64,000 nucleotides of DNA, taken from NCBI GenBank assembly GCA_963844875.1, contig CAWJPZ010000005.1, positions 24,681 to 88,680 on the forward strand, read 5' to 3'. The first letter of the stretch is position 1. Each line of letters starts with the position of its first letter. The notes under the pieces were generated by a model. It had not been told where the DNA came from. It ran no database searches and saw only the letters and a program-made list of their open reading frames with translations. This document shows, piece by piece, positions 15,382 through 45,440 of this stretch. The position numbers and the translations under genes were made by a program. The DNA comes from an uncultured Acidobacteriota bacterium. Lineage in GTDB: Bacteria; Acidobacteriota; Vicinamibacteria; Vicinamibacterales; Fen-181.

Positions 15382-15388
15382 CCGCCGT

Positions 15389-20550: not shown

Positions 20551-21024
20551 TTATCGAGCAAGCCACTCCGCCATCTGCGTCGCGAGGCAGTCGACGGCGG
20601 CTGCGACCCGCGGTGAAAGCGGCTGGCCCATTTCGAGCGTCGCGGGCTGGATGCCGATCAGCGCCACCTGGCAGCCGAGGTCGGCGGTCAGGTAGGTGGC
20701 CAGCACGGACGGCGGAAGCGTGTGGGTCGAGGCGCTCATGCCGTCGGCGTCGTGCCAGTCGATCCAGGCGAGCGTGCCAGGAGGCTGCTCCTGGTGCGCG
20801 GCGTCCACCTCGACGATCAGGTCGGGACGGAACCGCCGGAGGGGACCGGTGAAGTTCTCGGGCGCCGTGCCGCCGTTGATCAACAGCAGTCCCGGCGTCG
20901 CCGCCAGCTGCGCCGCCAGCGCCTTCACCACGCACACGCCCGCCCCGTCATCGCCATTCATCTCGTTCCCGACGCCGAGCACGGCGACGCGCGCAGGGCG
21001 TGGAGGGAAGGGCAGCGTCTGCAT
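20551..21024 (-). CDS. hycI: Hydrogenase maturation endopeptidase (HycI/HyaD family)
   Basis: It has the VLGVGNEMNGDDGAG motif, is 157 aa, and is the last gene of the hydrogenase operon. Confidence 0.8.
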   Translation of the reverse strand: MQTLPFPPRPARVAVLGVGNEMNGDDGAGVCVVKALAAQLAATPGLLLINGGTAPENFTGPLRRFRPDLIVEVDAAHQEQPPGTLAWIDWHDADGMSASTHTLPPSVLATYLTADLGCQVALIGIQPATLEMGQPLSPRVAAAVDCLATQMAEWLAR

Positions 21025-21029
21025 AAGAA

Positions 21030-21113
21030 GGCTTCAGGCTCCAGGCTTCAGGCTCTGGGCCGCGTCTGGCCCCGGCTCAGGGCCCAGGGCTCAAGCCTCA
21101 AGCCTCAGGCCTG
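21030..21113. repeat. 7-nt-periodic array (12 heptamers), GGCTTCN family, imperfect inverted arms
   Basis: GGCTTCA GGCTCCA GGCTTCA GGCTCTG GGCCGCG TCTGGCC CCGGCTC AGGGCCC AGGGCTC AAGCCTC AAGCCTC AGGCCTG. It fills the gap between the NuoI-like gene and hycI. Confidence 0.85.
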
Positions 21114-21114
21114 A

Positions 21115-21552
21115 TTACGCCGTCGCGGGCGCGGCTGCGGCCGGAGGTGCCGCCGGCTTGGGCGGCGGGTTCTTCAGCGCGTCGATGTCCTCGGGGCGGC
21201 CCAGGAGGAGCGTGAACGCCGCGCGATCCAGCGCTGCCAGCTCCCACCGCTCGTGCGACATGCTCAGCGCGTCGAAGTTGCAGCTGACGACGCACTGCGC
21301 GCAGAAGGTGCAGCGGTCGGTGTGGAACTTCATCACGAAGCGCTTGGTCGCCTTGTCGACGACCTGCAGCTCCACGGCGAACGCGGGGCAGTCGCGCACG
21401 CAGATCTTGCAGCCGGTGCACTTGGCCGGATCGAACGTGAGCTGGCCCCGCAGCCGTTCGGGCGTGGGCTTCCGCTCGAACGGGTAGCGTTCGGTCACCG
21501 GCCGCTTGAAGAGCGACTGGGTGATATCGCCGAGCATTGCGCCGATTCTCAT
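21115..21552 (-). CDS. Hydrogenase 2x[4Fe-4S] subunit (NuoI/HycF/MbhN-like)
   Basis: It carries CTGCKICVRDCP and CTFCAQCVVSCN, and has a Pro/Ala-rich C-terminal tail. Confidence 0.8.
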   Translation of the reverse strand: MRIGAMLGDITQSLFKRPVTERYPFERKPTPERLRGQLTFDPAKCTGCKICVRDCPAFAVELQVVDKATKRFVMKFHTDRCTFCAQCVVSCNFDALSMSHERWELAALDRAAFTLLLGRPEDIDALKNPPPKPAAPPAAAAPATA

Positions 21553-21635
21553 TTCCGGTACCTCGGGCGAGGGCCTGAAGGCCCTCGCCTACATCAACGG
21601 CCGCACCAGCCACTACGCGTGATCCCACCGCCCGT

Positions 21636-22554
21636 CTACCGGAGAATGACGATCAGGAACAGCTGGGCGATGGCCAGCAGGATCCCGATCCGCCACCACA
21701 TTCCCACGGTCTGGTCGATGCGAAGGCGGCAGAACAACGCCTGCAGGCCGGCGGTGACGACCAGCAGGCCGCCCGTCTTCAGCACGAACTCGAGAGGATT
21801 CGCGATCCCGCCGAGGTAGAACGACGCGATCAGCGTCAGGCCGACGAACAGCTCGACGTCGCGTCCGATTCGGAACAGCGCCCAGCCGCGGCCGCTGTAC
21901 TCGGTCATCGGGCCGGCGACGATCTCCGTTTCGGCCTCGGGGGAATCGAACGGGGGCAGTTCGAGCTTGCCCATCAGCCCGACGACCGCCACGAGGAAGC
22001 CGATCGGCTGGGTGACCACCATCCACCAATGTCCGTGGGCGAACGCGTCGACTCTGCAGATCTGCCAGGATCCGGCGATGATGGCCGGGCCCAGCAGCGC
22101 GAGCAGGAACGGCGCCTCGTACGAGAACAGCTGCGTGAGCGCCCGCGTCGCCCCGATCAGGGAGAACCGGTCGATCGTGTTCGCCCCGGCCAGGCCCATC
22201 GACAGTGTCATGAGGCTGAGGAGATACAGGGTGACGATCAGGTCGCCAGTGAAGCTGTAGGCCGGGACGAGGCCGGCCATCGGCACGTAGAGCGCGGCGG
22301 TGAGGGTCCCGACCAGGGCGACGATCGGCAGGCCGTGGAACAGCACCGGGTTGACGCCGTCGGGGACGATCTCCTCCTTGGCGAGGAGCTTGAACACGTC
22401 GGCGATCGGCTGGAACCAGCGCGGCCCGATCCGGTTCTGGAACTGCGCCACCAGCTTGCGGTCGGCGTATTCGTACCAGGTCCCGGCAAACAGCAGGAAC
22501 AGGCCGCCCGGGAAGAAGAGCAGCGCGATGAGTCGGCGGCAGCTGGATGTTCAT
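21636..22554 (-). pseudogene. Hydrogenase membrane subunit (NuoH/HycD/MbhM-like); one frameshift near the 5' end
   Basis: ORF 21636..22451 is NuoH-like (FQNRIGPRW..., PFDSPEAETEIVAGPMTEYSG). ATG 22554 (MNIQL...) is in another frame, and LIALLFFPGGLFLLFAGTWYEYADRKLVAQFQNRIGP is restored by a shift near 22520-22535. An ATGA overlap links it to the large-subunit stop. Confidence 0.8.
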
Positions 22555-23748
22555 CGGTAATACTCGATTCCGTATTGGCGCAGCCTGGCCCACGTCCACG
22601 TTTCGGCATCGTCCCTGCGCCGGATGGTGACCAGGCGGTCGTTGCACGAGAAGCACGGGTCGATGCCGGCGATGAGCATCGGCACGTCTGCCAGCTTGTG
22701 GCCGGGGGCGGTGGTGATCACCGACCCCCAGTTGCACAGGCTCGGGGTGCGGACCTTCACGCGGTCCGGGTTCGCGCCGCCCGCGCTCTTCAGGTAGTAG
22801 AGCAGTTCGCCGCGCGGGGCCTCCACCCGGCTCACGGTCTCGCCCGGCGGCACCTTCGGCTTGACGCGCACGGCCAGGTCGCCCGGCGGCATGTGGTCGA
22901 GGATCTCGCGGATGACGCGGTAGCTCTCGAACAGTTCCTGCAGACGGACGATGAACTTCGCCTCGAGGTCTCCGGCCGTCGCGGTGATGGTCTTGACGGG
23001 GAAGTCCGGGATACGCGGCGTACGGCGAATCCACGCGGATGTCGCGCGCCACGCCGGATGCGCGGGCGGTCGGCCCGACGGCGCCGAGGGTGTCGGCCTC
23101 GTCCGCCGTCATCTTGCCGACGTTGCGCGTGCGCCCGATCAGCGTCTCGTCGGTGGTGACGACCTTGAGGTAGTGGTGCGTGCGCGGCTCGAGCAGGTCG
23201 ACCGCCTTGCGGATGGCGTCCGCCTGCGCGTCGTCGACGTCGAACTTCACGCCGCCCAGGACGTTGCACGAGTAGTTGACGCGGTTACCCGTCAGCCCCT
23301 CCAGCACGTCCATGATCACTTCGCGGTCGCGCCACGAATACATGAACAGGGTGTCGAAGCCGCCCTCGTGGGCGGCGACGCCGAGCCACAGCAGGTGGCT
23401 GTGCACCCGCTCGAGTTCGGCGACGAGCACCCGGATCGCCTGGGCGCGCGGCGGCACCTGCACGCCTGCCAGCGCTTCGACGCCGAGGGCGTACGCCGTC
23501 GCGTGCACGTGCGAGCAGATCCCGCAGATCCGCTCGAGCATGTACATCGCCTGCGCCCAGTTCTGTCCCTCGACGCCCTTCTCGATCCCGCGGTGCACGT
23601 AGCCGAGGCGGACCGTGGCGGCGGTCACGATCTCGCCGTCCACCGTGATCTCGAAGTGGCCCGGTTCCTTCAGGGCCGGGTGCTGGGGCCCGATCGGCAC
23701 CACGAATTTCCTGCGCGGTTCCTGGTAAGTGTCCATCTCGTCCCTCAA
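22551..23748 (-). pseudogene. Group-4 [NiFe] hydrogenase large subunit (NuoD/HycE/MbhL-like); one frameshift
   Basis: The Ni-Fe ligand motifs RICGICSHVH (N-terminal) and DPCFSCNDR (C-terminal) are present, with a 27-aa tail after the second. The shift lies at 23006-23012 (...DSPYAAYP|DFPVKTITATAGDLEAKFIVRLQELF...). Confidence 0.85.
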
Positions 23749-23752
23749 AATC

Positions 23753-23787
23753 GGCTTTCGGCTTCTGGCTTCAGGCTTCCGGCGGTG
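23753..23787. repeat. 7-nt-periodic array GGCTTTC GGCTTCT GGCTTCA GGCTTCC GGCGGTG
   Basis: This is a direct heptamer array with no inverted partner, lying in the 47-nt gap between the NuoC-like and large-subunit genes. Confidence 0.8.
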
Positions 23788-23795
23788 TCACGCAG

Positions 23796-24311
23796 TCACG
23801 CTGGCAGACCTTTGAAGGCCTTCCTCAACGGGTAGACGCCGTCGGGCCAGTCGTCGGGCAGCAGCAGCTTCCCGGCATCCGGGGTGCCCTCGACCACGAT
23901 GCCGAACATCTCCATCAGCTCGCGCTCGTAGAGCGTCGCCGACGGGATGATGCTGCACACGCTCGGCACCACCGCGTCGTGGTAGGGAACGCTCACCCGC
24001 AGCGTGGCGACCACCGGACCGCTGACGAACTGGTAGAGCGCCTCGAGCCGGTCTTCCATCAGCGCGGCCGCCTCGGGCGTCAGGGCCTGCGGAGCGGCCG
24101 GCTTGGCGGGCGTCGGCCACGGGTGGTCGAGGCCCGTGATCGCCGACAGGTATCCCCAGCGCGCGTCGATGATCGTCTTGACGGCGGCGCACAGGTCCTC
24201 GCGCCTGACGATCGCCTCCACCCGCCCGGGAGCATGCACCACTGCGCCCACCGCGAAGGGCTGCAGCAGGGCGTCGGCTGCCTTGACGATGGCTTCGATT
24301 GGCATGGTCAT
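23796..24311 (-). CDS. Hydrogenase NuoC/MbhK-like (30-kDa) subunit
   Basis: 171 aa with a NuoC-type C-terminal core: YERELMEMFGIVVEGTPD...LLLPDDWPDGVYPLRK. Confidence 0.75.
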   Translation of the reverse strand: MTMPIEAIVKAADALLQPFAVGAVVHAPGRVEAIVRREDLCAAVKTIIDARWGYLSAITGLDHPWPTPAKPAAPQALTPEAAALMEDRLEALYQFVSGPVVATLRVSVPYHDAVVPSVCSIIPSATLYERELMEMFGIVVEGTPDAGKLLLPDDWPDGVYPLRKAFKGLPA

Positions 24312-24314
24312 CTC

Positions 24315-24800
24315 CTAGGCCACCGCCTCGGCGCCCTGCGCTGGGGCCGGCTGCTTCAGGCTGTTGAGCAGTGCGACGACGCCGTAGATGATCGCCTCCG
24401 GCCGCGGCGGGCAGCCGGGCACGAAGGCGCTCACCGGGATCACGTCGCCCAGGTTTCCGACGATGTTGTAGCAGCCCTGGAACGCGCCGCCCGAGATGCC
24501 GCACGACCCGACGGCCACGACGAACTTCGGGTCCGGCATCTGTTCGTAGATCCGGACCAGGCGGTCCTTGGCGAGGCGCGTCACCGGCCCGGTGCAGATC
24601 AGCACGTCGGCGTGGCGCGGGCTGCCCTGGAGTTTCACGCCGAAGCGCTCCAGGTCGTAGCGCGGGGTCAGGGTGGCGAGGATCTCGATGTCACACCCGT
24701 TGCACGACCCGCTGTTGAAATGGATGGCCCACGGCGAGTTGACCCGCGCCCACGTCCGCAGCGGGTTCATGATCGCGTCGAGCAGCGACACGTTTCCCAT
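24315..24800 (-). CDS. Hydrogenase small subunit (NuoB/HycG/MbhJ-like)
   Basis: The proximal-cluster cysteines are present: GSCNGCDIE, VAVGSCGISGG and VPGCPPRPE. Confidence 0.85.
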   Translation of the reverse strand: MGNVSLLDAIMNPLRTWARVNSPWAIHFNSGSCNGCDIEILATLTPRYDLERFGVKLQGSPRHADVLICTGPVTRLAKDRLVRIYEQMPDPKFVVAVGSCGISGGAFQGCYNIVGNLGDVIPVSAFVPGCPPRPEAIIYGVVALLNSLKQPAPAQGAEAVA

Positions 24801-24809
24801 ACCACGCTC

Positions 24810-25122
24810 CTATCCGAGAATCAGCGCCACGAGCGCGATCAGCAGCCCGACCAGGTAGACCGTCGCCGGCGCGGGCAGGCTCCCGACGCCGAGCACCAGC
24901 ATCGCCAGGTGGACCACGGCGAAGAACAGGGCAATGAGGAAGAACGGCTGGTATCCCGGCGCGGCTTCGAACGTGGGCGACGCCTCGCCGCTGCCGTAGA
25001 CGCTGCTCTTCACGGCGTTGGCATTCGCCGGGCCGGCCAGGAGCCGGCCGATCCCCGACGAGGATCAGCACCAGCGGGATGTAGGCCAGGAAGGCCACCG
25101 GGGGAGAGAGAAGAAGGTTCAT
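24810..25122 (-). pseudogene. Small membrane subunit, NuoA/MbhI-like; one frameshift
   Basis: MNLLLSPPVAFLAYIPLVLILVG joins IGRLLAGPANANAVKSSVYGSGEASPTFEAAPGYQPFFLIALFFAVVHLAMLVL..., with a shift at a C4/G4 run at 25053-25056. The layout resembles NuoA. Confidence 0.55.
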
Positions 25123-25134
25123 GCGGGCCCTCTC

Positions 25135-26671
25135 CTAGAATTGCGCCAGCGCGCCGGCGCCGGAGAACATCGACACCAGGTGGACGCCGCCGGGTGTGTG
25201 ACGAAGTCCATCAGCCCGGGCCAGAAGCCCGAGCACCACCACGACCAGGGTCAGCACGACGAGCGGGGCGCCCATCAGGAACGACACCGGCCTGCCGGAG
25301 GCGACCGCCGCCGACGGCTCGTGCCGGTACATCCGGTTGACGAGCGGCGCGTAGTACGCGAGCGACAGGACGCTGTTCAAGGCAGCGAAGATGACGAGCG
25401 CCTCGACCCCCGCGTTGCGCGTCTCGAAGCCCGCGACGAAGATCTGCCACTTGGACATGAACCCGGACAGCGGCGGCAGGCCGCCGAGCGCCAGCACCGA
25501 GATGCTGAGCGCGAACGCCGTGATCGGGTACTTGTTGCCGGCGCCGTTCAGGTCGTCGACCATGAGCGGGTCGTGGCTGCCGCGCGCGACGTGGAGCGAG
25601 TAGAGCAGCGCGCCGGCCGCCATGAAGGCGAGCCCCTTCATCAGCGCGTGGTTGAACAGGTGGAAGAAGCCGCCCGCCGCGCCGTTCGCGACGCCGTAGC
25701 CCACCGCCACGCCGAAGCCGACCAGCATGTAGCCCATGTGGCTGACGCTGGAGTAGGCGAACATCCGCTTCACCTGCGTCTGCCGCAGGGCCATCAGGTT
25801 GCCCGACGATCATGTTCAGCGCGCCGAACGCCAGGATCATCGACCCCCAGGTCGCGCTCGACCGGGGCGAGGCAGCCGAGCGACCGCAGCATCGCGATCA
25901 GGCCGGCTTCGATCACGATTCCCGACAGCATGGCGCTGATGCCGCTCGGCGCCTGGGAGTGCGCGTCGGGCAGCCAGGTGTGCAACGGGACGAGCGCGGT
26001 CTTCACCCCGAAGCCGATCAGGAAGAGCGCTCCCGCGGCCAGGAGTTGAGGCGGTGTGGGGCGGGCCGCGATCGCCAGCACCTGCTGGAGGTCGAGGGTG
26101 CCGGTCTGCGCGAAGACGAACGCGATGCCAATCAGCACGAAGGCGGAACCCACGGCCGACTGCACCAGGTACTTCACGCCCGCCTCGAGCGATCCCCGCT
26201 GCTCGCGGTAGAACGCCACGAGCAGGAACGAGGTGACGGCCATCGCCTCGAACCAGACCCACAGGTTGAACAGGTCGTTCGCGCACCCGAGGCCGATCAT
26301 CGTCGCGGCCATCGACACGAGCAGGGCGTAGTCCTTCTCCTCGCCCTCCTCCCCGCGCATGTAGGGGATGGAGAAGACCGATACGAGGAGGGTCAGCACC
26401 AGCACGGTGCCCGCCACGACCAGGCCGACGCCGTCCATCCGCAGCGAGATCGCGCCCACCGTCAACGAAACCGTGCCGCCGCGCCAGCACGGCGCTGGCC
26501 ACGTACCAGAGCGGAACCCCGGTCGGCCGCCAGCGTGAGCACCGACAGCCAGCGTGCCGGCGCCGCCGAGTCGCGCCGAGCCGCACGCTGATTCGGCCGG
26601 CCAGGTAGATCACCGGCGACGGCGACGAGGGGCAGCAGGAGCAACCAGGTCAATGCGAGTGTCGGGTTCAT
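25135..26671 (-). pseudogene. Antiporter-like membrane subunit (NuoM/NuoN/MrpD-like); at least 6 frameshifts
   Basis: Conserved blocks are spread over three frames: WLPDAHSQAPSGISAMLSGIVIEAG, KRMFAYSSVSHMGYML and GLPPLSGFMSKWQIF. Shifts lie near 26612, 26575, 26530, 26470, 25845 and 25797. Confidence 0.75.
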
Positions 26672-26676
26672 AGGAT

Positions 26677-28441
26677 CAGGCCCCTCCGAGCGCCAGGATG
26701 CCGAGCAGCACGACCAGCGACGACGAGGATCGCCAGGACGTTCCAGTTCAGCACCCCGTTGTGCGTCGCGCGCAGCGACTCGGCCGAGCTCTTCGGTCAC
26801 CCGGATCGACGCCGCGGTTGATCGCCTCGAAGCCGAAACTGTTCGGCGCCATCGTGCCGATGCCGCGCAGCGCGCTGGCGACTGCCGCCAGTTTGCCCGC
26901 GCTGCCACCACGCCGCCAGGCCCAGCGCCACCACGCCGAGCGCCAGGAACGTGGCCGGAGCGGTGGCGATCGTTTGCCAGCAGGACGGACGTGCCCTCCA
27001 CCTCGTGCTCCGGCGGCAACGCCTTGCCGAGGAAGTGCCCGAAGTCGCCGGCGAGGAGCCAGGTGGTGAGCGTGCCGAACGCCAGCGGGACCAGCGCGAC
27101 CTTCATCGCCGGCCCGGCGTCGTGCACGTGCTTGCCGCCGCGGGGCTCGCCGAAGAACACCATCGACAGGAAGCGCAGGGTGTAGAGCGCGGTCAGGCCG
27201 GCGCCCGACCAGCATGAAGAGCCCACGCCCACGAGCGGGCCGCCCTCGTGCCCGGCTTCGAGCACCAGTTCCTTGCTCCAGAAGCCGTTGAGGATCGGGA
27301 TGCCGGCCAGCGCCAGCCCGCCGATGATCATCACGACCTTCACGAGCGGCATCTGGCGGCCGAGACCGCCCATCTCGCGCATGTCGCGCGTGTGCACGGC
27401 GTGTATCACCGCGCCCGCCGAGAGGAAGAGCAGCGCCTTGAACACCGCGTGCGACAGCAGGTGGAACTGGCTGGCGAAGATGCCGCCGCAGCCCAATCGC
27501 GTAGACCATGTAGCCCAGCTGGCTGACGGTCGAATAGGCGAGGACCCGCTTCAGGTCGTTCGACACGATCGCCATGACCGCGGCCATCAGCGCCGTGACC
27601 GCGCCCACGGCGACGACCGCCAGCTTCCAGTACGGCACCGCCTCGAACGCCGGGTAGAACCGGGCCAGCAGGTAAACGCCCGCGTTCACCATCGTCGCGG
27701 CATGGATCGAGCGCGGAGATCGGCGTCGGCGCCTCCATCGCGTCGGGCAGCCAGGTCTGGAACGGGAACTGCGCCGACTTCGCGGCCGCCGCCACGAGGA
27801 AGCCGAACGCCATCAGCGCGAGGACGTTCGCCGGGAGGCTGGAAGCGCCGGCGAGGAACGTCGGCACGTCGTAGCTGCCCTGGTAGACGTAGAGGAACAG
27901 CGCGCCGGCCAGCAGGCCGATGCCGCCGACCTGGGTGATGATCAGGGCCTTGATGCCCGCCGCCACCGCCTTCGGGTCGTCGTTGTAGAACGAGATCAGC
28001 GCGTAGGAGCACAGCGCGGTGATCTCCCAGAACACGAAGACCATCAGCAGGTTGCTCGACAGGACGAGGCCCACCATCGACCCGATGAAGAACAGCACGT
28101 AGGCGTAGTAGCGGCCCAGCTGCCGCTCGCCCCTCATGTAGTCCACCGAGAAGATGACCGCCAGGCTGCCGATGGTCGTCGCGATGACGGCCAGGAACAC
28201 CGCCAGGCCGTCCGGCAGGAACGTCAGGGAGCCGAACGCGGAGCCGAGCGGCGAAGCCAAGGACGTTCACCTCGGTCCGCTGGGGGATCATGGCGAGTGC
28301 GGCGGCCGCGCCGGCCAGCGCGAACAGCACCGCGAGCGCGTGCTGCACCTGCGGCTTCCGGTCCTGGACCGCCCAGATCACGACGGCGCCCAGCCACGGC
28401 AGGCCAATCGAGAGCAGCGCAAGGGTCTCGATGGTCGGCAT
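26677..28441 (-). pseudogene. Antiporter-like membrane subunit (NuoL/MrpA/MbhH-like); at least 8 frameshifts
   Basis: Conserved blocks include FVFWEITALCSYALISF, KSAQFPFQTWLPDAMEAPTPISAL, MVNAGVYLLARF, LAYSTVSQLGYM and FHLLSHAVFKALLFLSAG. Shifts lie near 28263, 27710, 27497, 26968, 26893, 26800, 26775 and 26715. Confidence 0.75.
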
Positions 28442-28445
28442 GGCG

Positions 28446-28757
28446 CTACCTCCGCAGGGTCGACAGCGCCTGGAGGTCCAGCGTGCCGAACTGCCGGCGC
28501 ACCTGGACCGCGAGGGCCAGCGCGACGACGGAAACGATCGTGTCCGCCACGATCACGGTGAGCGCCATCGTCTGACCGGTCTGCACCTGGCCGGACAGCT
28601 TGCCGGCGAGGACGAGCGCGAGCATCGCGCCCTTCACCAGGACCTGCAGGCCGACGACGACCTTGATGAGGTTGCGCGTGACGAGCAGGCCCAGGAGGCC
28701 GATGCCCAGCAGGCCGAGCACCGCCACCGCGGTGAGCAGCGGAAGCGAGAGTGACAT
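28446..28757 (-). CDS. NuoK/MnhC/MbhG-like small membrane subunit
   Basis: 103 aa with three TM segments. Its start overlaps the upstream stop (TGATG). Confidence 0.7.
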   Translation of the reverse strand: MSLSLPLLTAVAVLGLLGIGLLGLLVTRNLIKVVVGLQVLVKGAMLALVLAGKLSGQVQTGQTMALTVIVADTIVSVVALALAVQVRRQFGTLDLQALSTLRR

Positions 28758-29245
28758 CACTGGTGCTCCTTCCGGGCGGCCACCCGCCCTTCGGTCAGCA
28801 GCCCGAGGACCGCCAGGACGCCGCCGATGATCAGCACGACCTGGAGCAGGACGTCCAGGCTCCGGTTCTGCCACAGGACGGTCGCGAACGTCTCGCCCTC
28901 GGCCGCCGCCGCTTCCGCCCGGAGGTTGGGGAGCGCCATGGCGGCGCCCAGGCCGATGGCGCAGAGCGCCACGACCCAGGCCAGCGGGGCCGGCACGAGC
29001 GAGCGCAGCGTGACCGGCGGCTCCTCGCCCGCGATGTTGATGGCGAACACGAACAGGACGGTGACCAGGCCGGCACCGACGCTCAACTCGATGACGGCGA
29101 CCTCGGGCGCCCCGAGCCGGAACATCATCAGCGCCGTGAGCGCCGAGGCGCCCGCCAGCCAGAGTGCAGCGATCAGGAGGCGTGTGCCGCGAACGGCCTG
29201 GAAGGCACACACCAGCAACGCTGCCACGATCAGCAGGTCGAACAT
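28757..29245 (-). CDS. First gene of the hydrogenase operon: MbhD/MbhE (MnhB)-like or NuoJ-like membrane subunit
   Basis: 162 aa, hydrophobic. The N-terminal half (GAPEVAVIELSVGAGLVTVLFVFAI) is MbhD/NuoJ-like. The C-terminal half (LWQNRSLDVLLQVVLIIGGVLAVLGL) is MnhB-like. Confidence 0.5.
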   Translation of the reverse strand: MFDLLIVAALLVCAFQAVRGTRLLIAALWLAGASALTALMMFRLGAPEVAVIELSVGAGLVTVLFVFAINIAGEEPPVTLRSLVPAPLAWVVALCAIGLGAAMALPNLRAEAAAAEGETFATVLWQNRSLDVLLQVVLIIGGVLAVLGLLTEGRVAARKEHQ

Positions 29246-29511
29246 GGACGAATCCCTTGATGAAGGAGGACGATGGAAATGCTGCGCCTTCTCCGGGGGG
29301 CTGACCGGCGGGCGCCGCGGGATTGCGGCGCGCCCCCGCTCGGAGCGGCAGCAGATGACAGGACCGAACTAGCCTAGTCCCCGGCGAGAGCCACGTGAAC
29401 GAACGATGATGATGACGTGATCGAAACGCTATGAACGAGTGGCCTTCGACACAGTCTGCGCCGCGTCCAATCCTGCGTATTTTGCACGAAGCCGCGTCCG
29501 GCGACAAGTGT

Positions 29512-29531
29512 TTTGTGAATTACTTCACAAA
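29512..29531. promoter_or_regulatory. Perfect CRP/FNR-family-type palindrome TGTGA-N6-TCACA
   Basis: TTTGTGAA-TTAC-TTCACAAA has 8-nt perfect arms. It sits in an unusually AT-rich stretch about 270 nt upstream of the hydrogenase operon start at 29245. Confidence 0.5.
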
Positions 29532-29672
29532 GACCGTAAATTATTCAGCCGTAGCGAAATGCGGCATATTGCTGAGGGTCAGAATGCGGCGCGTGTTGTA
29601 TTGTTCAGCAGCCTGATTTGTGGGCCGTCCGTCGCCGAAACCGACGCGCCGGGCGGCGCATCCATCGCTGTA

Positions 29673-29694
29673 GCACGGGGCTTCAGCCCCGTGC
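29673..29694 (-). terminator. Stem-loop just downstream of the preceding minus-strand gene
   Basis: GCACGGGGC-TTCA-GCCCCGTGC is a perfect 9-bp stem, 5 nt after the stop at 29699. There is no U-tract. Confidence 0.45.
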
Positions 29695-29698
29695 CCGA

Positions 29699-30617
29699 TC
29701 ACTCCTTCGGCGCGGCCGCGAGGTGGAGCGTGACCTCGAGCCGGACGCCCGTCACCGTCACCCTCCCGAACTTGTTCTCGTAGTCCTTGAATACCAGCTT
29801 CGTGGGCGTGGTCGTCACCGGCTTGAGATACTTGTCCAGGTTCTGCTGGATGTTGGCGAACGCCTTCCTGGCCGACGCGGCATCCGGGTAGGTCACGAGG
29901 ACGAGCGTCGTCTTGCCGGCGGCATCCTTGTAGTCGGCCGCGACTGCCGCGACCTTTCCGTTCAACAGCAGGATGTCGTCGTCGCCGAGCGTGTAGAGGG
30001 ACTGCAGGCCGAATGGTCCCCTGATGAGCCGTTCGGACCCGGCGACCAGTCCCGCCGCAGGGAGCGCCTTCAACTCGGGCGGCACCCGGTCGGGCGGCAG
30101 CCTGGCCGCCACCGCGCTGCCGAAGGCGACCAGCGCCGGCTGCATCTGGTCGGCGCCCGAGAGGTTGTTGATCGTGACGTAGTAGCGCTCGCGCACGAAC
30201 ATCAACTGGTGGCGGTTGATCGGTGTGGCGCGCCTTGAAGGCGGCGTCGGGCGTCTCCTTGCCGCGCTTCATCAGGTAGATGCCGGTCGCCGCCGCCGGG
30301 TCGGTCATCCGGTAGATTTCGACGGCGAACTCGTTCGCCCCGTTGCGGTACTTCTGCAGCGTCAGCTGATCGAACCCCAACTCCAGAAACAGTTCGGCCC
30401 CGCCGTCGATGTAGCCGTAGAGATCCGCCTTCGTGAAGACGCGGGGGTTGTCGGCCTTCTTCCAGCCTGCCACCGCCGCGTCGGCCGGCAACAGCGCCGA
30501 ATCGCCCGTCGGACGGGCGGACGCCTGCGCGTCGGGCATGACCGGGTCCGCTGACGTGGACCGAACGGCCACGCTCAGAACCGCCAGGACGCTCACCGTG
30601 CACAGCAATCGCCGCAT
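29699..30617 (-). pseudogene. Secreted hypothetical protein; one frameshift
   Basis: It has the signal peptide MRRLLCTVSVLAVLSVAVRSTSA and conserved-looking LYGYIDGGAELFLELGFDQ. The shift near 30205-30215 joins ORF 29541..30617 to ORF 29699..30205. Confidence 0.6.
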
Positions 30618-30637
30618 CCTTGTCTCCGACTCCCCTC

Positions 30638-30658
30638 GGGCAGGCGGGACGCCTGCCC
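30638..30658 (-). terminator. Stem-loop downstream of the DUF362 gene
   Basis: GGGCAGGCG-GGA-CGCCTGCCC is a perfect 9-bp stem in the 121-nt gap. Confidence 0.4.
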
Positions 30659-30738
30659 CACCGACCCTTGGTGCGTCCCGCCTTCGCGCTTCGCGCTACG
30701 GCGGCCGAGCAGTCCCGACCCCTCATCGTCGGATCCGA

Positions 30739-32026
30739 CTACACCTTCACGATGTGCATCTTCTCCGCCGCGACCACGCCGAGGCCCAGCGTCTCCGCGT
30801 AGCGCAGGTACTCGGTGATCCGCGGGCTCTCGTTGACGGTCACGCCCATTTCCTTCCGCTTCGCGTTGATCTCCTGGTGGCAGAGCATGTCCAGCGCGAA
30901 CGGGTCGGTGGCGAAGTAGAGGGAGTGGTTGTCGTAGACGAACTGGGCGTTCTTGTCGGGGCCGCCGTCGTACTGCGCGCGCAGGCCGTCGGTGATGTTC
31001 AGCGCGAGCTTGTCGCGCAGGACCGGCGCCGCCAGCACCTCGGTGTTCACCTTCAAGCGACAGCGGCGCGTGCAGCCGGCCGGTGTTGCAGACCGCCCCG
31101 TAGCCCAGGTTCTTGGTGGCCATCGAGATCGACGGCGCCGGTGTTCTTGAACGCGGCCACGTTGATGATGCGGGTCAGCTTCTTGGTCAGCAGCTTCCCG
31201 AAGTACGAGTACTCGCCGTTGAACACGTGCTGGTTCACGTAGAACTCGTCGTTCTTGTAGCCCTTCACGCCCTTGCCGACGATGCCCTTGGCGAAGTAGA
31301 AGACGTCCTTGTCGAAGTTGTCGATGGACACGTGCTTGCCGTCCGGTCCGCGCCACTTGTTGCCCGCTTCGTCCATCGTCTGCAGGCCTTCGAGGGCGAT
31401 GCCGGGGAAGCGGTCCTTGGTGAAGCCGGCGTCCTTCAGCATGTAGTCGAAGCGGTCCCAGATGACGATGTTCGACTTGGGGATGCCGTTGTCCACGAGC
31501 CACTTGATCACGGCGTCGACGACTTCGGGCCGGGTGTTGATGAGCGGCGGACCGACCGGGTTCACCTTGATCCCGACGACGTCGCGCGGGTCGATGAGGA
31601 GCCGGAACGACTCGTTCATCGGCTTGCCCGGTCAGCGTGGCGATGCCCTTGGCCGACCATCTCGTCGATGACCTTGCCGTCGAAGCTTGGCGTTGCCTCC
31701 GGCTTCTGCGCAGCAGGCGCGGGCGGCTCTCCCGCCTTGGCGGCCGGTGCCGAGGGCGGCGTCCACTTCTCGGGGACAGACCGCGCGTCGGTGACCTTCA
31801 CGACCCTGCCGGGGAAGGGGCCGGGCAGCGAGCGCGCCGTCTTCGGGACCTTGGTGAAGTCCCCGATGTTCGTTTCGACGGGGGCCGCCGGCTGCGGTGT
31901 CTGGCCGAAGCCAGGCCCGGCGAGCACGAGGCCGCCGGCGGCGGCGGCCGACGCCGCACCGATCGACTTCACGAATTCGCGGCGGTTGCACCCCGGGGCC
32001 AGGTCCATCGAGCGGTAACGCTTCAT
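30739..32026 (-). pseudogene. Tat-signal DUF362 domain protein; at least 3 frameshifts
   Basis: It has a twin-arginine leader [32 protein letters not shown]. The DUF362-like core is VVGIKVNPVG...INVAAFKNTG...ATKNLGYGAVCN...DGLRAQYDGGP. Shifts lie near 31640, 31125 and 31060. Confidence 0.65.
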
Positions 32027-32048
32027 CGTGTCTTCCTTTCGTTTGCCC

Positions 32049-32163
32049 GGCTTCGGGCTGCCACCTTCCGGCTTCGGGCCGCGTCAGGCATCGGGCAAAT
32101 GGTTGCGGCGCTGTCGGCCCTGTCTTCCGCCGGCCGGAAGCCGAGAGCCGGAGGCCTGGAGCC
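32049..32163. repeat. 7-nt-periodic array, GGCTTCN family, inverted arms around a ~50-nt centre
   Basis: GGCTTCG GGCTGCC ACCTTCC GGCTTCG GGCCGCG TCAGGCA ... GCCGGAA GCCGAGA GCCGGAG GCCTGGA GCC. It fills the gap between the polyferredoxin stop and the DUF362 start. Confidence 0.8.
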
Positions 32164-33865
32164 TATCGTTTCGGTGCCGGGGGCAGGATGAACTGGTTCG
32201 TCTTCGAGCGCGTTTCGCCGACGCTGGTGACATAGACGGCCGGCCGGTCCTTCACCGGGCAGGCGAACTCGCACGCGCCGCAGCCGATGCAGCGCTTGGC
32301 ATCGACCGCCGGCCGCCGGACCGTCTTCGTCTTCCCGTCCGCGTCCACCACGTCGGCGCTGGCGAGGTACGATGGCCTTCGGCGAGGTCGGGCAGCACTC
32401 CTCGCAGACGATGCAGTCGGTGGCCATCGCCCACGGCAGGCAGCGGCCCTGGTCGTAGAACGCCGTGCCGATCCTGATCGGGTTGCCGCCGGATCGGCGT
32501 GGGGCCGGGATTGCGGACCGGTCGCGGTTGCTCCGCCGGGAGGCTCTGCCAGCTTCTCGCCTCGGTGATCTTCTGGATGGCGCCGGTCGGGCAGACCTGG
32601 CCGCAGAGCACGCAGGTGGGCTCGCAGTAGCCGATGCGCGGCATGAGGATCGGCGTCCAGAGCCCCTCGATGCCGGCTTCGAAGAACGCCGGGTGCAGCG
32701 CGTTGTTCGGGCACACCTTCATGCACTCGCCGCAGCGGATGCAGCGCTCGAGGAAGTGCGGCTCCTCGAGCGCGCCCGGCGGCCGGATCAGGCGCGAGTC
32801 GGTTCCGACGTCGAGCCGGTCGGCGATGCGCAGCAGCGGCACGAGCGCGGCGCCGGCGGCGACGCCGGCGAGCAGCTTGCGGCGCTGCAGCTGCGGCGCT
32901 CGAGCGTGGTCGCGGCCGACGGCAGCGAGCCGAAGCGGAACGCGATGCCGTCCGTGGGGCAGTCGCCCACGCAGTTCAGGCACAGGTGGCACTCGTCCTT
33001 CCGCCACTTCGCCGCCGGGGATCGGGTCGTCGCCGCCCTGGCAGTGCAGCAGGCAGCGGTTGCAGTCGTCGCACGCGGCCTGGTCCTTCTCCAGGCTGGA
33101 CCAGCGACCAGCGCGAGACACGCCGAGCAACGCGCCGAGCGGGCAGAGGGCGCGGCACCAGAACCGCGTGACGCGCAGGTTGAGGGCGAGCAGCCCGATG
33201 AAGATGGCGCCGAGGAAGAACGCCTGCCGGAAGTGCGGCTGCTTGAAGCTGACGAGCGTCGCCCTGCAGCACGAACTGCGCCGCGTCCGCGGCGAAGCGG
33301 ACCGGCTGCCAGGGGCTGTCGTACCACGACGTCGAGCAGCGCGCCCGAGGCGTAGTTCACGCCCGGGAAGATCGACAGCCGCCAGCGAACGGACGCGTCA
33401 GCGAGATCGGGTCGAGCAGCCCGGCGAGCAGCGAGCCGAAGACCGCCGCCAGCAGCACCGCTGCCAGCACGTAGTACTTCACGGCCTGCCACGGCTTGTA
33501 GCGGTTCGAGTCGAGCAGCGCCTTTCCGCGCTTCTTCTCGGACTTGAAGCTCCCGAAGAAGTGGTGCAGCGTGCCGAGCGGGCAGACCCAGCCGCAGAAG
33601 AAGCGGCCGAGGACGAACGTCGGCACCAGGATCGACCAGGCTCCACAGCAGGCCGCGGTAGAGGGTGTGCGTGGAGATGCGCGGTCGCCATCGCGGCCAG
33701 CGGGTCGGCCTCGAGGAAGATCGAGACGGGCCACGGCAGCCGGACCTGTCCGGACGCCCCGCGGAACGAGCCCGTGAACTCGGACCGGAAGAGCAGGAAC
33801 AGGAACGCCGCGAGGAACACGATCTGCGAGACGCGGCGCACGACGGACAGGTGGGGACGCTGCAT
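32163..33865 (-). pseudogene. Membrane polyferredoxin, NapH-like N-terminal half fused to a NapG-like 4x[4Fe-4S] half; at least 9 frameshifts
   Basis: It has TM segments with two CX3CP motifs (FCGWVCPLGTL, WCRALCPLGAL). It also has CDDCNRCLLHC, CHLCLNCVGDCP, an internal RRKLLAGVAAGAALVPLL, then [30 protein letters not shown] and [12 protein letters not shown]. These motifs are spread over several frames. Confidence 0.65.
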
Positions 33866-33868
33866 AGG

Positions 33869-34852
33869 CTACACGGTACCACGCTTGGTCCGGACCTCCT
33901 CGAAGTTCGCCTTGCCGAGGCCGCGGGCCTGGGCGATGCGGAGGAACGGCAGGCGCTGATGGTCGAGGTCCCACCACGCCTTGGCGGCGTAGGATCGAGC
34001 GCGACCGGGTCGGTGCCGGCGAGCAGCGTCTTCTTCACCTCCACGTCGGCCAGGCTGCCTCCCGTCGGCCCGCCGCGCATCAGGACCCGGTAGGCGTCGA
34101 TGATCGTGAGCGTCGGCCGGGCGAAGGCGGTCAGGTCGACCAGGCTCTCGTTGATGCGCTGGTGCAGGCGGCTGCGCTGGCCGCCGATGATCCCGTAGAA
34201 GTTCTTCATGCCGAGCGTGCACGCCGGTCAGGCTGTGGTGCTTGGCGATCGGCAGGTTGATGACCTTGTCGGCGTTCAGAAACGGCTCGAGCACCGGCCA
34301 CGTCGGTCAGCACCTCGCCGCCCAGGTTGACCTGCTTGAACCGGCGCTCGTCGGGCAGGATCACCTCGGCGCCCGCGGCCTTCGCGGCCGCGGCGATCCC
34401 GCTGCGCTCGAAGCACACGCGGGGGTCGTTGCAGCTCATGTCGGTCACGATGACCCGCCTGGCGCCGGCGTCGAGGCACAGGCGGACGACCTCCGCGACG
34501 ACAGCCGGGTTGGTGTTCGCCGCCTGCTCGGGCGCGCGGTCCCAGCCGATGTTCGGCTTGACGACGACGATGTCGCCGCGGGCGATGAAGCGGCGCATGC
34601 CGCCGAGTTCCTCGAGCGCGCGGCGGACCAGGCCTCGGGCGAGCCGCCCTGTGCCACCACCATCTCGGGCAGGCCGGGGTCGGCGGGCACGCCCGTCCGG
34701 CGGCTGGCGACCAGGACTTCCGATTCCTTCGGCCGCTCGCTGCGCCAGCTGAGCCACCCGGCCGCGCCGACAGTGGCAGCGCTCAGGCCTCCGAGCCGCA
34801 GCACGCGCAGCATGAACTCGCGGCGGTCCGCCGCGGGTGTGTCACTCGCCAT
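33869..34852 (-). pseudogene. Tat-signal DUF362 domain protein (second copy); at least 4 frameshifts
   Basis: It has the leader MASDTPAADRREFMLRVLRLGG. The core is IVVVKPNIGWDR...RVIVTDMSCND...INLPIAKHHSLTG...MKNFYGIIGG...TIIDAYRVLMRGGPTGG. The stop lies 3 nt before the polyferredoxin ATG. Confidence 0.65.
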
Positions 34853-35009
34853 CGGTCGGTGCTCCAGGGGCAGAGCCGAACGGGGGTTCCAGGTTCAAGG
34901 CCCAACATTCTACCGGTGTTGCTGTGCCTTTCGCGCGCGATTCAGCCAGGAGCTTCGGCGCGAGGCGTCGCGAGTTCGAGGGGGGCGCAACGGGTGAGCT
35001 AGCCGCCGT

Positions 35010-35096
35010 CAATGCACAATGCATAATGCCCAGCGCAGAATGCACAACGCGCAAAGGCCCTTCCTTCTTGCATTGTGCATTTTGCATTGTGCATTC
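35010..35096. repeat. 7-nt-periodic AT-richer array (NAATGCA family) forming a long hairpin
   Basis: CAATGCA CAATGCA TAATGCC CAGCGCA GAATGCA CAACGCG ... TCTTGCA TTGTGCA TTTTGCA TTGTGCA. The outer arms match at 19 of 20 positions. It lies just downstream of the FKBP gene stop at 35115. Confidence 0.8.
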
Positions 35097-35114
35097 GGTA
35101 TCCGTCGCCCCCCG

Positions 35115-35879
35115 TTACCGGCCTGCTGCCGCGGACGTCGGTACGACGTAGGTGTAGCCGCCGGCCAAGGTCGCGCTCAAACCTTCGGGATTGATCACCA
35201 CGACGTCCACGGCGCCCGCAGTGTGCGCAGGGGTGGTGGCCGTGAGTTTCGTGCTGCTCACCAGCGTCACGTTCGTTGCGGCGGCGCCGCCGATGGTCAC
35301 CGCGAAGCCGCTCGTGAACTCGGTGCCGGTGATGGTGACGGTCGTGCCGCCGCCCGTCGGTCCCGAGGCCGGCTCGATCCCGCTGATCGTCGGGGTCACG
35401 CTGATGCCGACCAGCTCGATGTCGAAGATCAGCGTCGCGTTCGGCGGGATCGACGCGTACCGGTTCGCCCCGTAGGCATCGGACGGCGGAAGGACGAGGC
35501 GGCGCTGCCCGCCGACCTTCATGCCGACTACGCCCTTATCCCACCCCGTGATGACCGACCCGCTCCCGAGCTGGAAGACCAGCGGGGACTTGCCGACGGT
35601 CGTGTCGAACACGAGTCCCTTCTTGTCGGTCTTGTTGATGTCGTAGAACCAGCCGGTGTACCTCACGACCACCACGCTGCCGCTCACGGCCTCGGCGCCG
35701 GTGCCGACGAGCAGGTCGGTCTGACTGTATTCGGGGCTCGACGGCGTCACGGGAGTGTTGTCGCACCCGCCGGCCGCGACAGCCAGGGCGACCACCGATG
35801 CGAGCACGAGGACCGGACGGAACAAACCACTCAGTTTCACGGAACTTCTCCGGGCAAAGGGCAGGCGCCCGATTGTCAC
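35115..35879 (-). CDS. Lipoprotein: FKBP-type peptidyl-prolyl isomerase fused to a C-terminal IPT/TIG domain
   Basis: It has the lipobox LAVAAGGC and the FKBP core VVVVRYTGWF...GSGSVITGWDKGVVGMKVGGQRRLVLPPSDAYG. This is followed by PTISGIEPASGPTGGGTTVTITGTEF..., which is IPT-like. Confidence 0.75.
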   Translation of the reverse strand: MTIGRLPFARRSSVKLSGLFRPVLVLASVVALAVAAGGCDNTPVTPSSPEYSQTDLLVGTGAEAVSGSVVVVRYTGWFYDINKTDKKGLVFDTTVGKSPLVFQLGSGSVITGWDKGVVGMKVGGQRRLVLPPSDAYGANRYASIPPNATLIFDIELVGISVTPTISGIEPASGPTGGGTTVTITGTEFTSGFAVTIGGAAATNVTLVSSTKLTATTPAHTAGAVDVVVINPEGLSATLAGGYTYVVPTSAAAGR

Positions 35880-40203: not shown

Positions 40204-40257
40204 GCAGGGCGGATGGCGGAGGGCGGAGGACGAGCCGGAGGGTGGAGGACGAAGGCC

Positions 40258-41931
<1,674 letters not shown>

Positions 41932-42281: not shown

Positions 42282-42286
42282 GCCCT
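42266..42286. repeat. (GAGCCCT)x3 heptamer array
   Basis: Three perfect copies span the stop of ORF 42018..42281 and the stop of the convergent tricorn-like gene at 42285. Confidence 0.8.
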
Positions 42287-45200: not shown

Positions 45201-45440
45201 CGCCACCCACTTGCCGTCGGGAGAGAAGCGCGGGAAGGTGTTGCGCGAGACGTGGGCCGTCAGGCGAGCCGGGCGCGCGCCGTCGGCGTCGGCCACCCAC
45301 AGGTCGCCGTGGTACGCGAAGGCCAGCTTGCCGTTCGAGACGTGGGGATACCGGGCGAACTTGATGGGCGCGGCGAGGGCGGCCGTGGCCGCCACCACCG
45401 CGAACAGGCAGACCGCCGTGATCACGAGGCTCTTTCGCAT
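42285..45440 (-). CDS. Tricorn-like protease: TolB/WD40-type beta-propellers, PDZ and a C-terminal S41 peptidase domain
   Basis: The 1051-aa ORF is intact. It has a signal peptide, repeated FSPDGK.. propeller blades, and an S41-type core: a LVVDIRYNGGG block in the nucleophile region, ...LINWRSASDSE.... Confidence 0.85.
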   Translation of the reverse strand: MRKSLVITAVCLFAVVAATAALAAPIKFARYPHVSNGKLAFAYHGDLWVADADGARPARLTAHVSRNTFPRFSPDGKWVAFTSNRMGNDDVWVIPAAGGEARQLTFLTTADTVLYWTPDGKRIIFASNRSGQPFGSPLYSVALEGGLPEPLPVDVGSNGMIKQDGSALAFNRIPVRYWRKGYKGNAADDIFVQDLKTKAITQLTGTDLQAFREKRQSLHPMWGADGMVYFSSEKDGIFNIWKIAPTGGQPTQVTFHKQDGVQFPSISPDGKTISYENEFELWTLAVPGGSPRKVAIDLDYDPKENLVQFVQSKGRIDGFSPSPDGDYAAVDFHGEILVVPTDPEFGERQLVTSSSWRDRRESFSPNGRYVAYTSDESREEEVWVFDRQAGTRRKLTTHASFKNLGGWSADSKQLAYVAANRLFTADIDSGSSVELRANPAGGFQSVNFSPDGKWLAYTRRDDDQNADVYLYDIAGKKEYDVTPNPFSEGRAAFTPDGRKLVFLSERDGGVMHLFIVSLERLREDPDDPLVKERARKARAEQKGKDAAPAPAPAGIQVDAGGIDRRAIQLTKGTEADGPYFISADGRLVYFVSSDEKGRGLFSVGTDGKDRKRVADGAFAGLTATADTKKVFYTQDGELYQMELSGEKKKTKINTAMTVKVDNRVEWQQIFDECWRVMNYQFYDEKMHGRDWGAVKATYEPLLKYVGENDDVYDIANEMIGELNASHTGVSGPASREIPPAYTTRLPGLDLVPDGGLYRISRIYRKGPADKEWLDIKVGDYVLAIDGKAVKAGDNYWRLLNDPLNEYVTFRISRTAAGTDARDVRIKTVASLSEVKYGEWVERNREFVDKDTNGQIAYVHIQSMNQPSLKKFQNEIDQFWNKKGLVVDIRYNGGGNIDQELLDILERRPYEFWNNRWGARTWGRRPRSMVVGPKVMLINWRSASDSEVTPMGFRDLGLGRIVGNPTNASVIATGSYGLINGGSIRTPGSLVVTWDPSKPNNYGVNLENYGVAPDVFVKNSPEDELKGFDRELKAAVDEAMKMLKEKSWRYEK

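Follow-up and report, generated by a model that had tools for sequence, protein, structure and literature searches.

A gene cluster conserved across phyla links Tat-signal DUF362 proteins and a DUF6599 protein with a fused NapH-NapG-like polyferredoxin in an uncultured Acidobacteriota bacterium

The stretch of DNA analysed in this work, called the window throughout, comprises 64,000 nucleotides (nt) of contig CAWJPZ010000005.1 from an uncultured Acidobacteriota bacterium and has a G+C content of about 69%. Our subject is a cluster of four co-directional genes, A, B, C and D, which occupies the minus strand from 34852 to 29699 (Table 1). A and C encode proteins of the family DUF362 that start with signals for the twin-arginine translocation (Tat) pathway, B encodes a polyferredoxin in which a NapH-like membrane half is fused to a NapG-like half, and D encodes a secreted protein of the family DUF6599. 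An earlier note on this DNA had named the first three genes, and these stand; the fourth conserved component, D, lies outside the coordinates given there and had been overlooked. The stop codon of A (33869-33871) and the ATG of B (33865) are 3 nt apart, as that note had claimed, and all the Tat, CX3CP and cysteine motifs that it quoted were located on the minus strand at definite coordinates. A scan for promoters and terminators over 29100-35200 was uninformative.

The genes were assigned to families by profile matches. Against Pfam DUF362 (PF04015, cut-off 24), A scored 186.5 bits (E = 7.8e-55) and the divergent C scored 46.9 bits (E = 4.3e-12), while two fragments of D matched Pfam DUF6599 (PF20244, cut-off 27) with 54.5 and 35.8 bits (E = 1.4e-14 and 7.7e-09). 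The nearest database proteins to A are 92% identical and 327 amino acids (aa) long, and the homologues of C are 86-87% identical. Residues 300-508 of B matched the NCBIfam model of NapG from model position 8 onwards with 96.6 bits (E = 1.3e-27), and residues 7-156 matched that of NapH with 62 bits (E = 4.6e-17), scores which are far below the respective NCBIfam cut-offs of 269 and 234; the models of the NosR and MauM/NapG-MauN families gave weaker matches. Since both scores fall below the curated equivalog cut-offs and none of napA, napB and napC was found near the cluster, we rejected the assignment of B to true NapGH.

None of the four genes is present as an intact open reading frame (ORF) in the window. 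Six-frame translation shows each protein switching frames, and the proteins of the cluster were stitched from three frames. Intact orthologues were taken from a syntenic metagenomic contig of 1.36 Mb (L001) and aligned to the window DNA by a frameshift-aware dynamic programme, which required 4 single-base frame changes in A, 13 in B, 4 in C and 1 in D, about 22 in total, with no in-frame stop across the approximately 1,650 codons of the four genes. In this alignment A is identical to its orthologue at 263 of 329 positions. The intact orthologues retain all the Tat and Fe-S motifs that the earlier note had read from the window. In the third NapG-type motif of B (32389-32442), the window has CIVCEECCP where 20 of 20 homologues have CEEWCP with an invariant Trp (W499 of P0035, the intact orthologue of B); this TGG to TGC difference may be another sequence error.

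Table 1. Genes, motifs, frame changes and the neighbouring operon in the window (positions are those of the window).
Feature	Position	Strand	Basis or remark
Gene A: A-type DUF362, about 327 aa	33869..34852	-	Pfam DUF362 match
Gene B: fused polyferredoxin, NapH-like membrane half and NapG-like half	32163..33865	-	NCBIfam matches
Gene C: long divergent DUF362, about 400-430 aa	30739..32026	-	Pfam DUF362 match
Gene D: secreted DUF6599, about 300 aa	29699..30617	-	Pfam DUF6599 match
Tat motif of A, DRREFML	34808-34828	-	Motif search
Hydrophobic stretch of A signal, LGGLSAATVGAAGWLSW	34745-34795	-	Follows the Tat motif
Conserved motif of A, VVVKPN	34536-34568	-	Predicted active site
Conserved motif of A, PIAKHH..TG	34223-34255	-	Predicted active site
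Conserved motif of A, GMKNFYG	34192-34218	-	Predicted active site
Conserved motif of A, RLHQR	34156-34173	-	Predicted active site
First CX3CP motif of B, FFCGWVCPLG	33573-33602	-	NapH-like part
Second CX3CP motif of B, FWCRALCPLG	33134-33163	-	NapH-like part
Predicted cytoplasmic four-Cys [4Fe-4S] motif of B, CDDCNRCLLHC	33041-33073	-	
Predicted cytoplasmic four-Cys [4Fe-4S] motif of B, CHLCLNCVGDCP	32956-32991	-	
Internal twin-arginine motif and fifth transmembrane segment of B, QRRKLLAGVAAGAALVPLLR	32828-32887	-	
Four NapG-type four-Cys motifs of B, predicted periplasmic	32708-32743, 32588-32626, 32389-32442, 32256-32291	-	
Tat motif of C, NRREFVK	31967-31987	-	Motif search
Signal peptide of D, MRRLLCTVSVLAVLSVAVRSTSA	30549-30617	-	
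Frame changes in A	near 34632, 34304, 34222, 33992		
Frame changes in C	near 31654, 31629, 31133, 31057		
Frame change in D	near 30221		
Group 4 membrane-bound [NiFe] hydrogenase operon, complete-looking	20551..29245	-	Begins about 450 nt downstream of D

Homologues of B number more than 7,900, and its intact relatives have about 550-575 aa. Across 20 of these homologues, none of the 24 motif cysteines, of the two further CX3CP pairs or of the twin arginines varies. In the numbering of P0035, the CX3CP cysteines are C93, C97, C238 and C242, those of the cytoplasmic motifs are C266/269/272/276 and C293/296/299/303, and the twin arginines are R329 and R330; the invariant positions include all 16 cysteines of the four NapG-type motifs. 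The same architecture has been described by Tooke et al. 2017 (eLife, PMC5449189) for the "polytopic polyferredoxins", whose example, Q1NSB0 from delta proteobacterium MLMS-1, was explicitly termed a NapH-NapG fusion. These proteins have five transmembrane helices, a conserved twin-arginine motif before the fifth, cytoplasmic Fe-S motifs and four extracytoplasmic [4Fe-4S] motifs. The export of the C-terminal part of Q1NSB0 needs the twin arginines and Tat, as shown with MBP and AmiA fusions, and according to the rule given in the same study, a Tat-dependent helix is weakly hydrophobic and is followed by positive charge (PMC5449189).

B shares with the MLMS-1 protein the five-helix layout, the two CX3CP motifs, the two cytoplasmic four-Cys motifs, the twin arginines ahead of a weakly hydrophobic fifth transmembrane domain (TMD5) with positive charge, and the NapG-like half with four four-Cys motifs. 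P0035 is colinear with residues 1-364 of Q1NSB0, as taken from the supplement of PMC5449189, with 39% identity over 335 residues (E = 2e-61). In this alignment the twin-arginine segment GRRKLLASAAAGAALVPLLRS of P0035 lies against GRRRLLGAAAAGLVVGPLLRV of Q1NSB0, and the motif QRRKLLAGVAAGAALVPLLR of B aligns with GRRRLLGAAAAGLVVGPLLR of the MLMS-1 protein. A strict pattern recovered the internal twin-arginine motif in 181 of 202 homologues, and in 178 of the 181 TMD5 is less hydrophobic than the first transmembrane domain (means of 6.4 and 3.1, where higher values are less hydrophobic, by a crude position-independent sum on the Hessa scale, the dGpred server having been used in PMC5449189). 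The C-terminal end of TMD5 carries about two Lys/Arg residues, and Arg comes after the segment. Based on the colinear identity of 39% with the twin arginines aligned, the invariant motifs, and the agreement of TMD5 in hydrophobicity and charge, B is by its sequence a member of the dual Sec/Tat polytopic polyferredoxin family (Sec being the general secretory pathway) that has already been described, and tested by experiment for its MLMS-1 homologue. The reading of B as a NapH-NapG fusion with an internal twin-arginine segment is therefore upheld, but not as a novelty, since the family was described in 2017.

The predicted topology places the N-terminus, the CX3CP motifs and two clusters of B in the cytoplasm and its NapG-like half in the periplasm. 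An independent check on this topology comes from D: DUF6599 is fused to the C-terminus of B, its predicted periplasmic end, in 6 of the 80 genomes of the survey described below and in several database proteins, and the D-type proteins carry a signal peptide when free-standing. The homologues listed in PMC5449189 come from Latescibacteria, Nitrospirae, Caldithrix, Thermoplasmatales, Chloroflexi and Firmicutes, while B comes from an Acidobacteriota-like genome. That study deals with the membrane insertion of the MLMS-1 protein and names no partner or function for it, whereas B sits with DUF362 and DUF6599 proteins. As no partner had been named, we tested the linkage of these genes across genomes.

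For this survey, one genome per species was scanned with an alignment of the B homologues, which yielded 80 loci, and up to 10 kb on each side were searched with hidden Markov models (HMMs), those for A, B and C built from their homologues and that for D by iteration. The loci belong to about nine phyla; most are from Acidobacteriota (Vicinamibacterales, Bryobacterales, Terriglobales), and the others from Gemmatimonadota, Verrucomicrobiia, Ignavibacteriales, Bacteroidota, Myxococcota/Polyangiaceae, Bradymonadales, Zixibacteria and Chromatiales. An A-type DUF362 gene lies within 10 kb of the polyferredoxin gene in 61 of the 80 loci and is directly adjacent to it in 39, in several cases with an overlap of 4 nt; the loci without an A-type gene are mostly truncated contigs. 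In 56 loci DUF6599 either lies adjacent to the polyferredoxin or is fused to it, and a second DUF362 paralogue is present in 41. The order of the genes varies, with A-B-C-D in Vicinamibacterales, B-D-C'-A in Terriglobia, and also B-A(-D) and A-B(-D), while the membership is constant. Three further look-ups that started from DUF362 proteins again found the polyferredoxin adjacent. The linkage of DUF362 to a NapH-like polyferredoxin, which the earlier note had put forward from this one locus, is kept in about nine phyla.

When the neighbouring ORFs of the 80 loci were clustered all against all, no other family was found to recur across phyla, besides a pair formed by a radical SAM protein and a Memo-AMMECR1 fusion; the other recurrent clusters consisted of shadow ORFs in antisense or of genes specific to a lineage (aldo/keto reductase, kinases, proteases). 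This "AmmeMemoRadiSam" pair lies inside the cluster in about 20-22 of the 80 loci, in Terriglobia and Bryobacteraceae, between the second DUF362 gene and the A-type gene (at 13225-15995 of locus L019, for example; other loci with the pair are L002, L010, L018-L021, L024, L025, L029, L032 and L037), and it may serve the maturation of the exported proteins in the cytoplasm. A second nearby cluster, on the opposite strand and with three Tat-signal DUF362 paralogues and DUF6599, was observed in a locus of Bacteroidota (L062, 11866-16348) and in one of Chromatiales (L064, 14172-18204), which indicates that the association of DUF362 with DUF6599 recurs independently of the polyferredoxin gene. There was no mention of DUF6599 in the literature searched, and the partnership of the polyferredoxin with two Tat-signal DUF362 paralogues and DUF6599 appears not to be described there.

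The two DUF362 proteins of the window belong to a large family (COG2006) to which the literature searched assigns no function. In cytoplasmic members such as R5WQE2, a 4Fe-4S (Fer4) dicluster is nested inside the DUF362 domain (PMC7955657), and extracellular members are in some cases fused with CBM9 and dockerin modules (PMC5742341). The A-type subfamily has 438 clusters at 50% identity with E values up to 1e-30, and 6,132 with E values up to 1e-3. That both genes flanking B encode DUF362 proteins with Tat signals, as had been proposed, agrees with their Pfam matches and with the twin-arginine motifs kept in their orthologues, from which export is predicted. Across the 80 genomes, the twin-arginine motif is found in 62 of 63 A-type neighbours and in 40 of 46 other DUF362 neighbours, and among 56 diverse A-type representatives of 33-64% identity the conservation of R10 and R11 is 90% or more. 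The signals of the two proteins differ. That of C is a classical, cleavable-looking Tat signal that ends in an AxA-like site, whereas that of A has no clear AxA cleavage site, is modelled by AlphaFold2 as one long helix (residues 7-37) and may be retained as an uncleaved membrane anchor.

The positions conserved in the 56 A-type representatives are K99-P-N101, D138, K204-x-H206, K216-N217, R226, H230, D252, R255, G261-P262 and D286, among which K99/N101, K204/H206, K216/N217, H230, D138, D252 and D286 are either invariant or conserved to at least 90%. The C' paralogues show the same pattern as the A type, and the long C type keeps most of it, without the His of K-x-H.

DUF362 and DUF2088, the N-terminal domain of LarA, share the Pfam clan CL0471 (PMC11770544). 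LarA binds its nickel-pincer cofactor via K184 (tether), H200 (nickel) and R75, has His108/His174 as catalytic residues, and carries out a chemistry with no net electron transfer. Neither A nor C has a sequence match to DUF2088/LarA, DUF362 being the sole Pfam family matched, and their AlphaFold2 models are of moderate confidence, with values of the predicted local distance difference test (pLDDT) of 75.6 for A and 67.4 for C. In a comparison of the C model with 350,542 PDB chains, the six best matches all belong to the LarA superfamily, including malate racemase (7s91 and 6d6z), LarA-like proteins (9q3j and 9q3k) and the LarA of Isosphaera (9eia), and are weak, with template modelling (TM) scores of 0.22-0.34 and E values of 1e-3 to 3e-2. 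LarA enzymes and DUF362 both have a conserved Lys and His in a central pocket, and in DUF362 K216 and H230, and likewise K204 and H206, are candidate counterparts of K184 and H200; LarA enzymes are cytoplasmic and unlinked to Fe-S proteins, whereas the DUF362 proteins studied here bear Tat signals and are linked to a polyferredoxin. The shared clan and the fold matches of C hint weakly at DUF362 as a sister family of the LarA nickel-pincer racemases, and a hydride-transfer cofactor acting on hydroxy-acid or sugar-like substrates would be an attractive guess.

NapH is a membrane protein with CX3CP motifs and cytoplasmic clusters, and NapG is exported by Tat and carries four [4Fe-4S] clusters. 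B is like the NapGH of E. coli and Wolinella succinogenes in its domain content and predicted topology, and by this analogy it probably works likewise, its Fe-S clusters forming a wire that joins the quinone pool to a periplasmic enzyme. It differs in being one fused polypeptide instead of two proteins, and in having DUF362 and DUF6599 as partners instead of a molybdoenzyme or cytochromes. A similar logic, in which a Sec-inserted membrane redox subunit feeds a Tat-exported, cofactor-containing periplasmic domain or partner, is found in MsrPQ-type systems and in fused systems of heme and molybdenum cofactor (MoCo) such as Sco3746, which occur in split and fused versions (PMC5449189); these have no homology to the cluster and use heme b and MoCo, in place of [4Fe-4S] chains and a putative DUF362 cofactor.

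The interpretation that we favour, and consider probable though well short of certain, is that the four genes constitute a conserved membrane-periplasm electron-transfer module that serves periplasmic DUF362 enzymes and is either linked to quinones or leads from the cytoplasm to the periplasm. The NapH-like half of B, with its four helices, two CX3CP motifs and two cytoplasmic [4Fe-4S] motifs, would be inserted by Sec, and the twin arginines and the weakly hydrophobic fifth helix would pass the folded NapG-like half, loaded with its four [4Fe-4S] clusters, to Tat and thus into the periplasm; both steps have been shown for the 39%-identical homologue and are expected here by homology. A would be exported folded via Tat and would probably stay tethered to the membrane through its uncleaved signal, beside the NapG-like domain, and the translation of A and B would often be coupled. 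C would be a soluble Tat-exported periplasmic protein, the second DUF362 paralogue, and D, predicted to be secreted, is in some species joined to the predicted periplasmic end of B. The linkage, the fusions and the predicted localisation suggest that A, C and D meet B on the periplasmic face.

In such a module, the Fe-S chain of B would link the quinone pool, or a cytoplasmic donor acting via the NapH-like clusters, to the DUF362 proteins. By the homology to NapGH and by the ferredoxin domains nested in cytoplasmic DUF362 proteins, the latter are the candidate catalytic subunits, much as the earlier note had predicted them to be terminal enzymes fed from the quinone pool, and they would oxidise or reduce a small periplasmic substrate by two electrons. 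Each probably carries an organic or metal cofactor that it receives in the cytoplasm: a cysteine-free protein exported by Tat points to such loading, and a cofactor inserted in this way would explain the dependence of DUF362 on Tat.

Several points weigh against this interpretation. The linkage of genes does not by itself establish electron transfer between DUF362 and the polyferredoxin; the catalytic role of DUF362 is suggested by genomic context, and the oxidation of quinol by B by distant homology. About 7 of the 80 genomes have the polyferredoxin and full flanks, and no DUF362 within 10 kb. No cysteine is conserved in DUF362 among the 56 A-type representatives, and the alignments of the A type and of C' contain no recognisable redox-cofactor motif. 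As to structure, the low TM scores of the LarA matches of C come from a model with a pLDDT of 67, the model of A found in Foldseek searches of the PDB only generic matches to Rossmann folds and alcohol dehydrogenases (TM about 0.2), and sequence searches of the PDB with three DUF362 profiles gave nothing meaningful and no LarA chain at E values up to 10. Finally, the cluster may be inactive in this genome if the frame changes are real.

A bolder version of the proposal, which we regard as doubtful, would make the Tat-exported DUF362 proteins the catalytic subunits of a widespread and unrecognised class of periplasmic oxidoreductases. As LarA-like enzymes, these would use a cofactor, of the nickel-pincer type or another that is inserted in the cytoplasm, to oxidise or reduce hydroxy-acid or sugar-type substrates by a net two electrons; the dedicated dual Sec/Tat polyferredoxin would connect them to the quinone pool, and DUF6599 would be a substrate-binding or docking subunit. 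If this were true, the chemistry of pincer cofactors would extend from cytoplasmic racemisation to periplasmic redox catalysis linked to the respiratory chain.

Other explanations assign the proteins of the cluster to different roles. Many NapH-like proteins have roles in maturation or maintenance, and the cluster could likewise be a maintenance or maturation system, similar to NosR/NosH, MauM/MauN or CcoG, in which the polyferredoxin would export reducing power for the cofactor or metal of another periplasmic enzyme, with DUF362 and DUF6599 as accessory carriers or chaperones. The weaker matches of B to the NosR and MauM/NapG-MauN models, the lack of obvious redox-cofactor motifs in DUF362 and the presence of the radical SAM and Memo/AMMECR1 pair, which is typical of modification systems, within some of the clusters are in line with this view. 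We nevertheless consider it unlikely, because no candidate client enzyme is conserved beside the cluster, where, the radical SAM pair aside, DUF362 and DUF6599 are the only families that recur across phyla, because the pocket residues of DUF362 show a conservation like that of an enzyme active site, and because cytoplasmic DUF362 proteins have a nested ferredoxin domain of their own, as catalytic subunits do. The kinship of DUF362 with LarA allows another view, in which these proteins would be non-redox isomerases (racemases or epimerases) of periplasmic hydroxy-acids or sugars, and their linkage to the polyferredoxin would come from something else, such as shared regulation or cofactor repair. 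Membership in the clan of LarA, the LarA-family racemases as best fold matches in the PDB and the net-neutral chemistry of LarA speak for isomerases, but such enzymes have no evident need for an electron wire of six or seven clusters, and across phyla DUF362 is closely coupled, often at the level of translation, to an Fe-S protein with multiple clusters; it also has cytoplasmic members with nested ferredoxin domains. For these reasons, we judge this view to be very unlikely.

Two further explanations concern the window itself, where the cluster is followed by the hydrogenase operon. This operon includes MbhD, Oxidored_q2, two Proton_antipo_M, Oxidored_q6, Complex1_30kDa, Complex1_49kDa, NADHdh, Fer4 and the maturation protease HycI; NuoB/C/D/H/I-like and antiporter-like subunits are among them. 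The earlier note was right that the cluster lies upstream of the operon and in the same direction, and the two might be coupled in function, so that the co-expressed cluster would be an electron outlet or inlet between the ferredoxin/H2 metabolism and the periplasm; the predicted cytoplasmic [4Fe-4S] clusters of the NapH-like half could take electrons from ferredoxin. Outside the window, however, this order is kept only in five close relatives (L001, L004, L083, L084 and L085), and no Mbh, Mrp or NuoB-like neighbour is present in 78 of the 80 species loci, including two with the order A-B-C-D (L012 and L014). The two gene sets are always separated by a gap of 367-700 nt, and their adjacency may reflect shared ancestry, given that the upstream MatE gene is syntenic in the same clade as well. 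We therefore rejected a conserved linkage to the hydrogenase, which is restricted to the closest clade, and functional coupling seems to us the least probable of the explanations considered. The other local explanation is gene decay in this genome: the cluster, together with the first half of the hydrogenase operon, would consist of degenerating pseudogenes, a dead remnant whatever their role elsewhere. At least 31 single-base frame changes are packed into about 9.6 kb (about 25.05-34.65 kb) across the two adjacent operons, where they affect the DUF362 cluster, two NuoL-like genes and one small downstream gene, the last three being split in tblastn searches with the L001 proteins. A hidden-Markov segmentation by third-codon-position G+C gives phase blocks of 50-600 nt at about 25.8-34.9 kb, and of gene length elsewhere. 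The genes on either side are intact, with a single full-length tblastn match each (M28 at 38530-40203, MatE at 37078-38379 and the NuoB-like Oxidored_q6 at 24330-24800). All the changes are of a single base, with no in-frame stop codons, and the broken genes are as close to their L001 orthologues (about 80% amino-acid identity for A, 82-94% for the NuoL segments) as the intact ones (79% for M28, 77% for MatE, 90% for the NuoB-like protein), so that no excess of substitutions accompanies the indels. The C gene is fragmented in the related long-read contig L083 too, which points to an artefact of assembly. Because of this local confinement between intact flanks, the absence of in-frame stops and the equal identities, the indels are most likely sequence error in an unpolished stretch of a long-read assembly rather than gene decay, and we hold that the cluster is improbable as a dead remnant.

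What appears to be new here is the partnership, in which a redox module of the NapGH type is joined by partners of a new class; the fused polyferredoxin was already known. The polyferredoxin has served as a model of Sec/Tat co-operation, and the cluster supplies candidate partners for it, as well as a testable role for DUF362, a large family without an assigned function. Three uncharacterised families, DUF362, the polyferredoxin and DUF6599, would thereby be given a concrete role in a redox module that runs from the membrane to the periplasm and has a new type of catalytic subunit. The carriers, from about nine phyla, are mostly uncultured bacteria of soils and sediments. In Acidobacteriota the cluster is nearly universal among the sampled genomes, which makes this phylum the place to seek the substrate.

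Some other genes of the window were also recorded. Directly upstream of A, a gene at 35115-35879 on the minus strand encodes a fusion of a peptidyl-prolyl isomerase of the FKBP type with an IPT/TIG domain, which probably has a signal sequence; L001 has at this position a shorter FKBP gene on the opposite strand. Synteny with L001 and L083 extends to the arrangement of M28 and MatE upstream of the cluster. Two M28 peptidase paralogues lie in tandem at 38530-41931 on the plus strand, and this pair adjoins a gene for a Tricorn-like protease of 1,068 aa (PD40, Tricorn_C1, Peptidase_S41) at 42285-45491 on the minus strand. About 27 kb from the cluster, a separate redox enzyme, a molybdopterin oxidoreductase (Molybdop_Fe4S4, Molybdopterin, Molydop_binding), is encoded at 3044-5314 and is followed by a Fer4_11 four-cluster protein, the pair spanning 3044-5929 on the plus strand.

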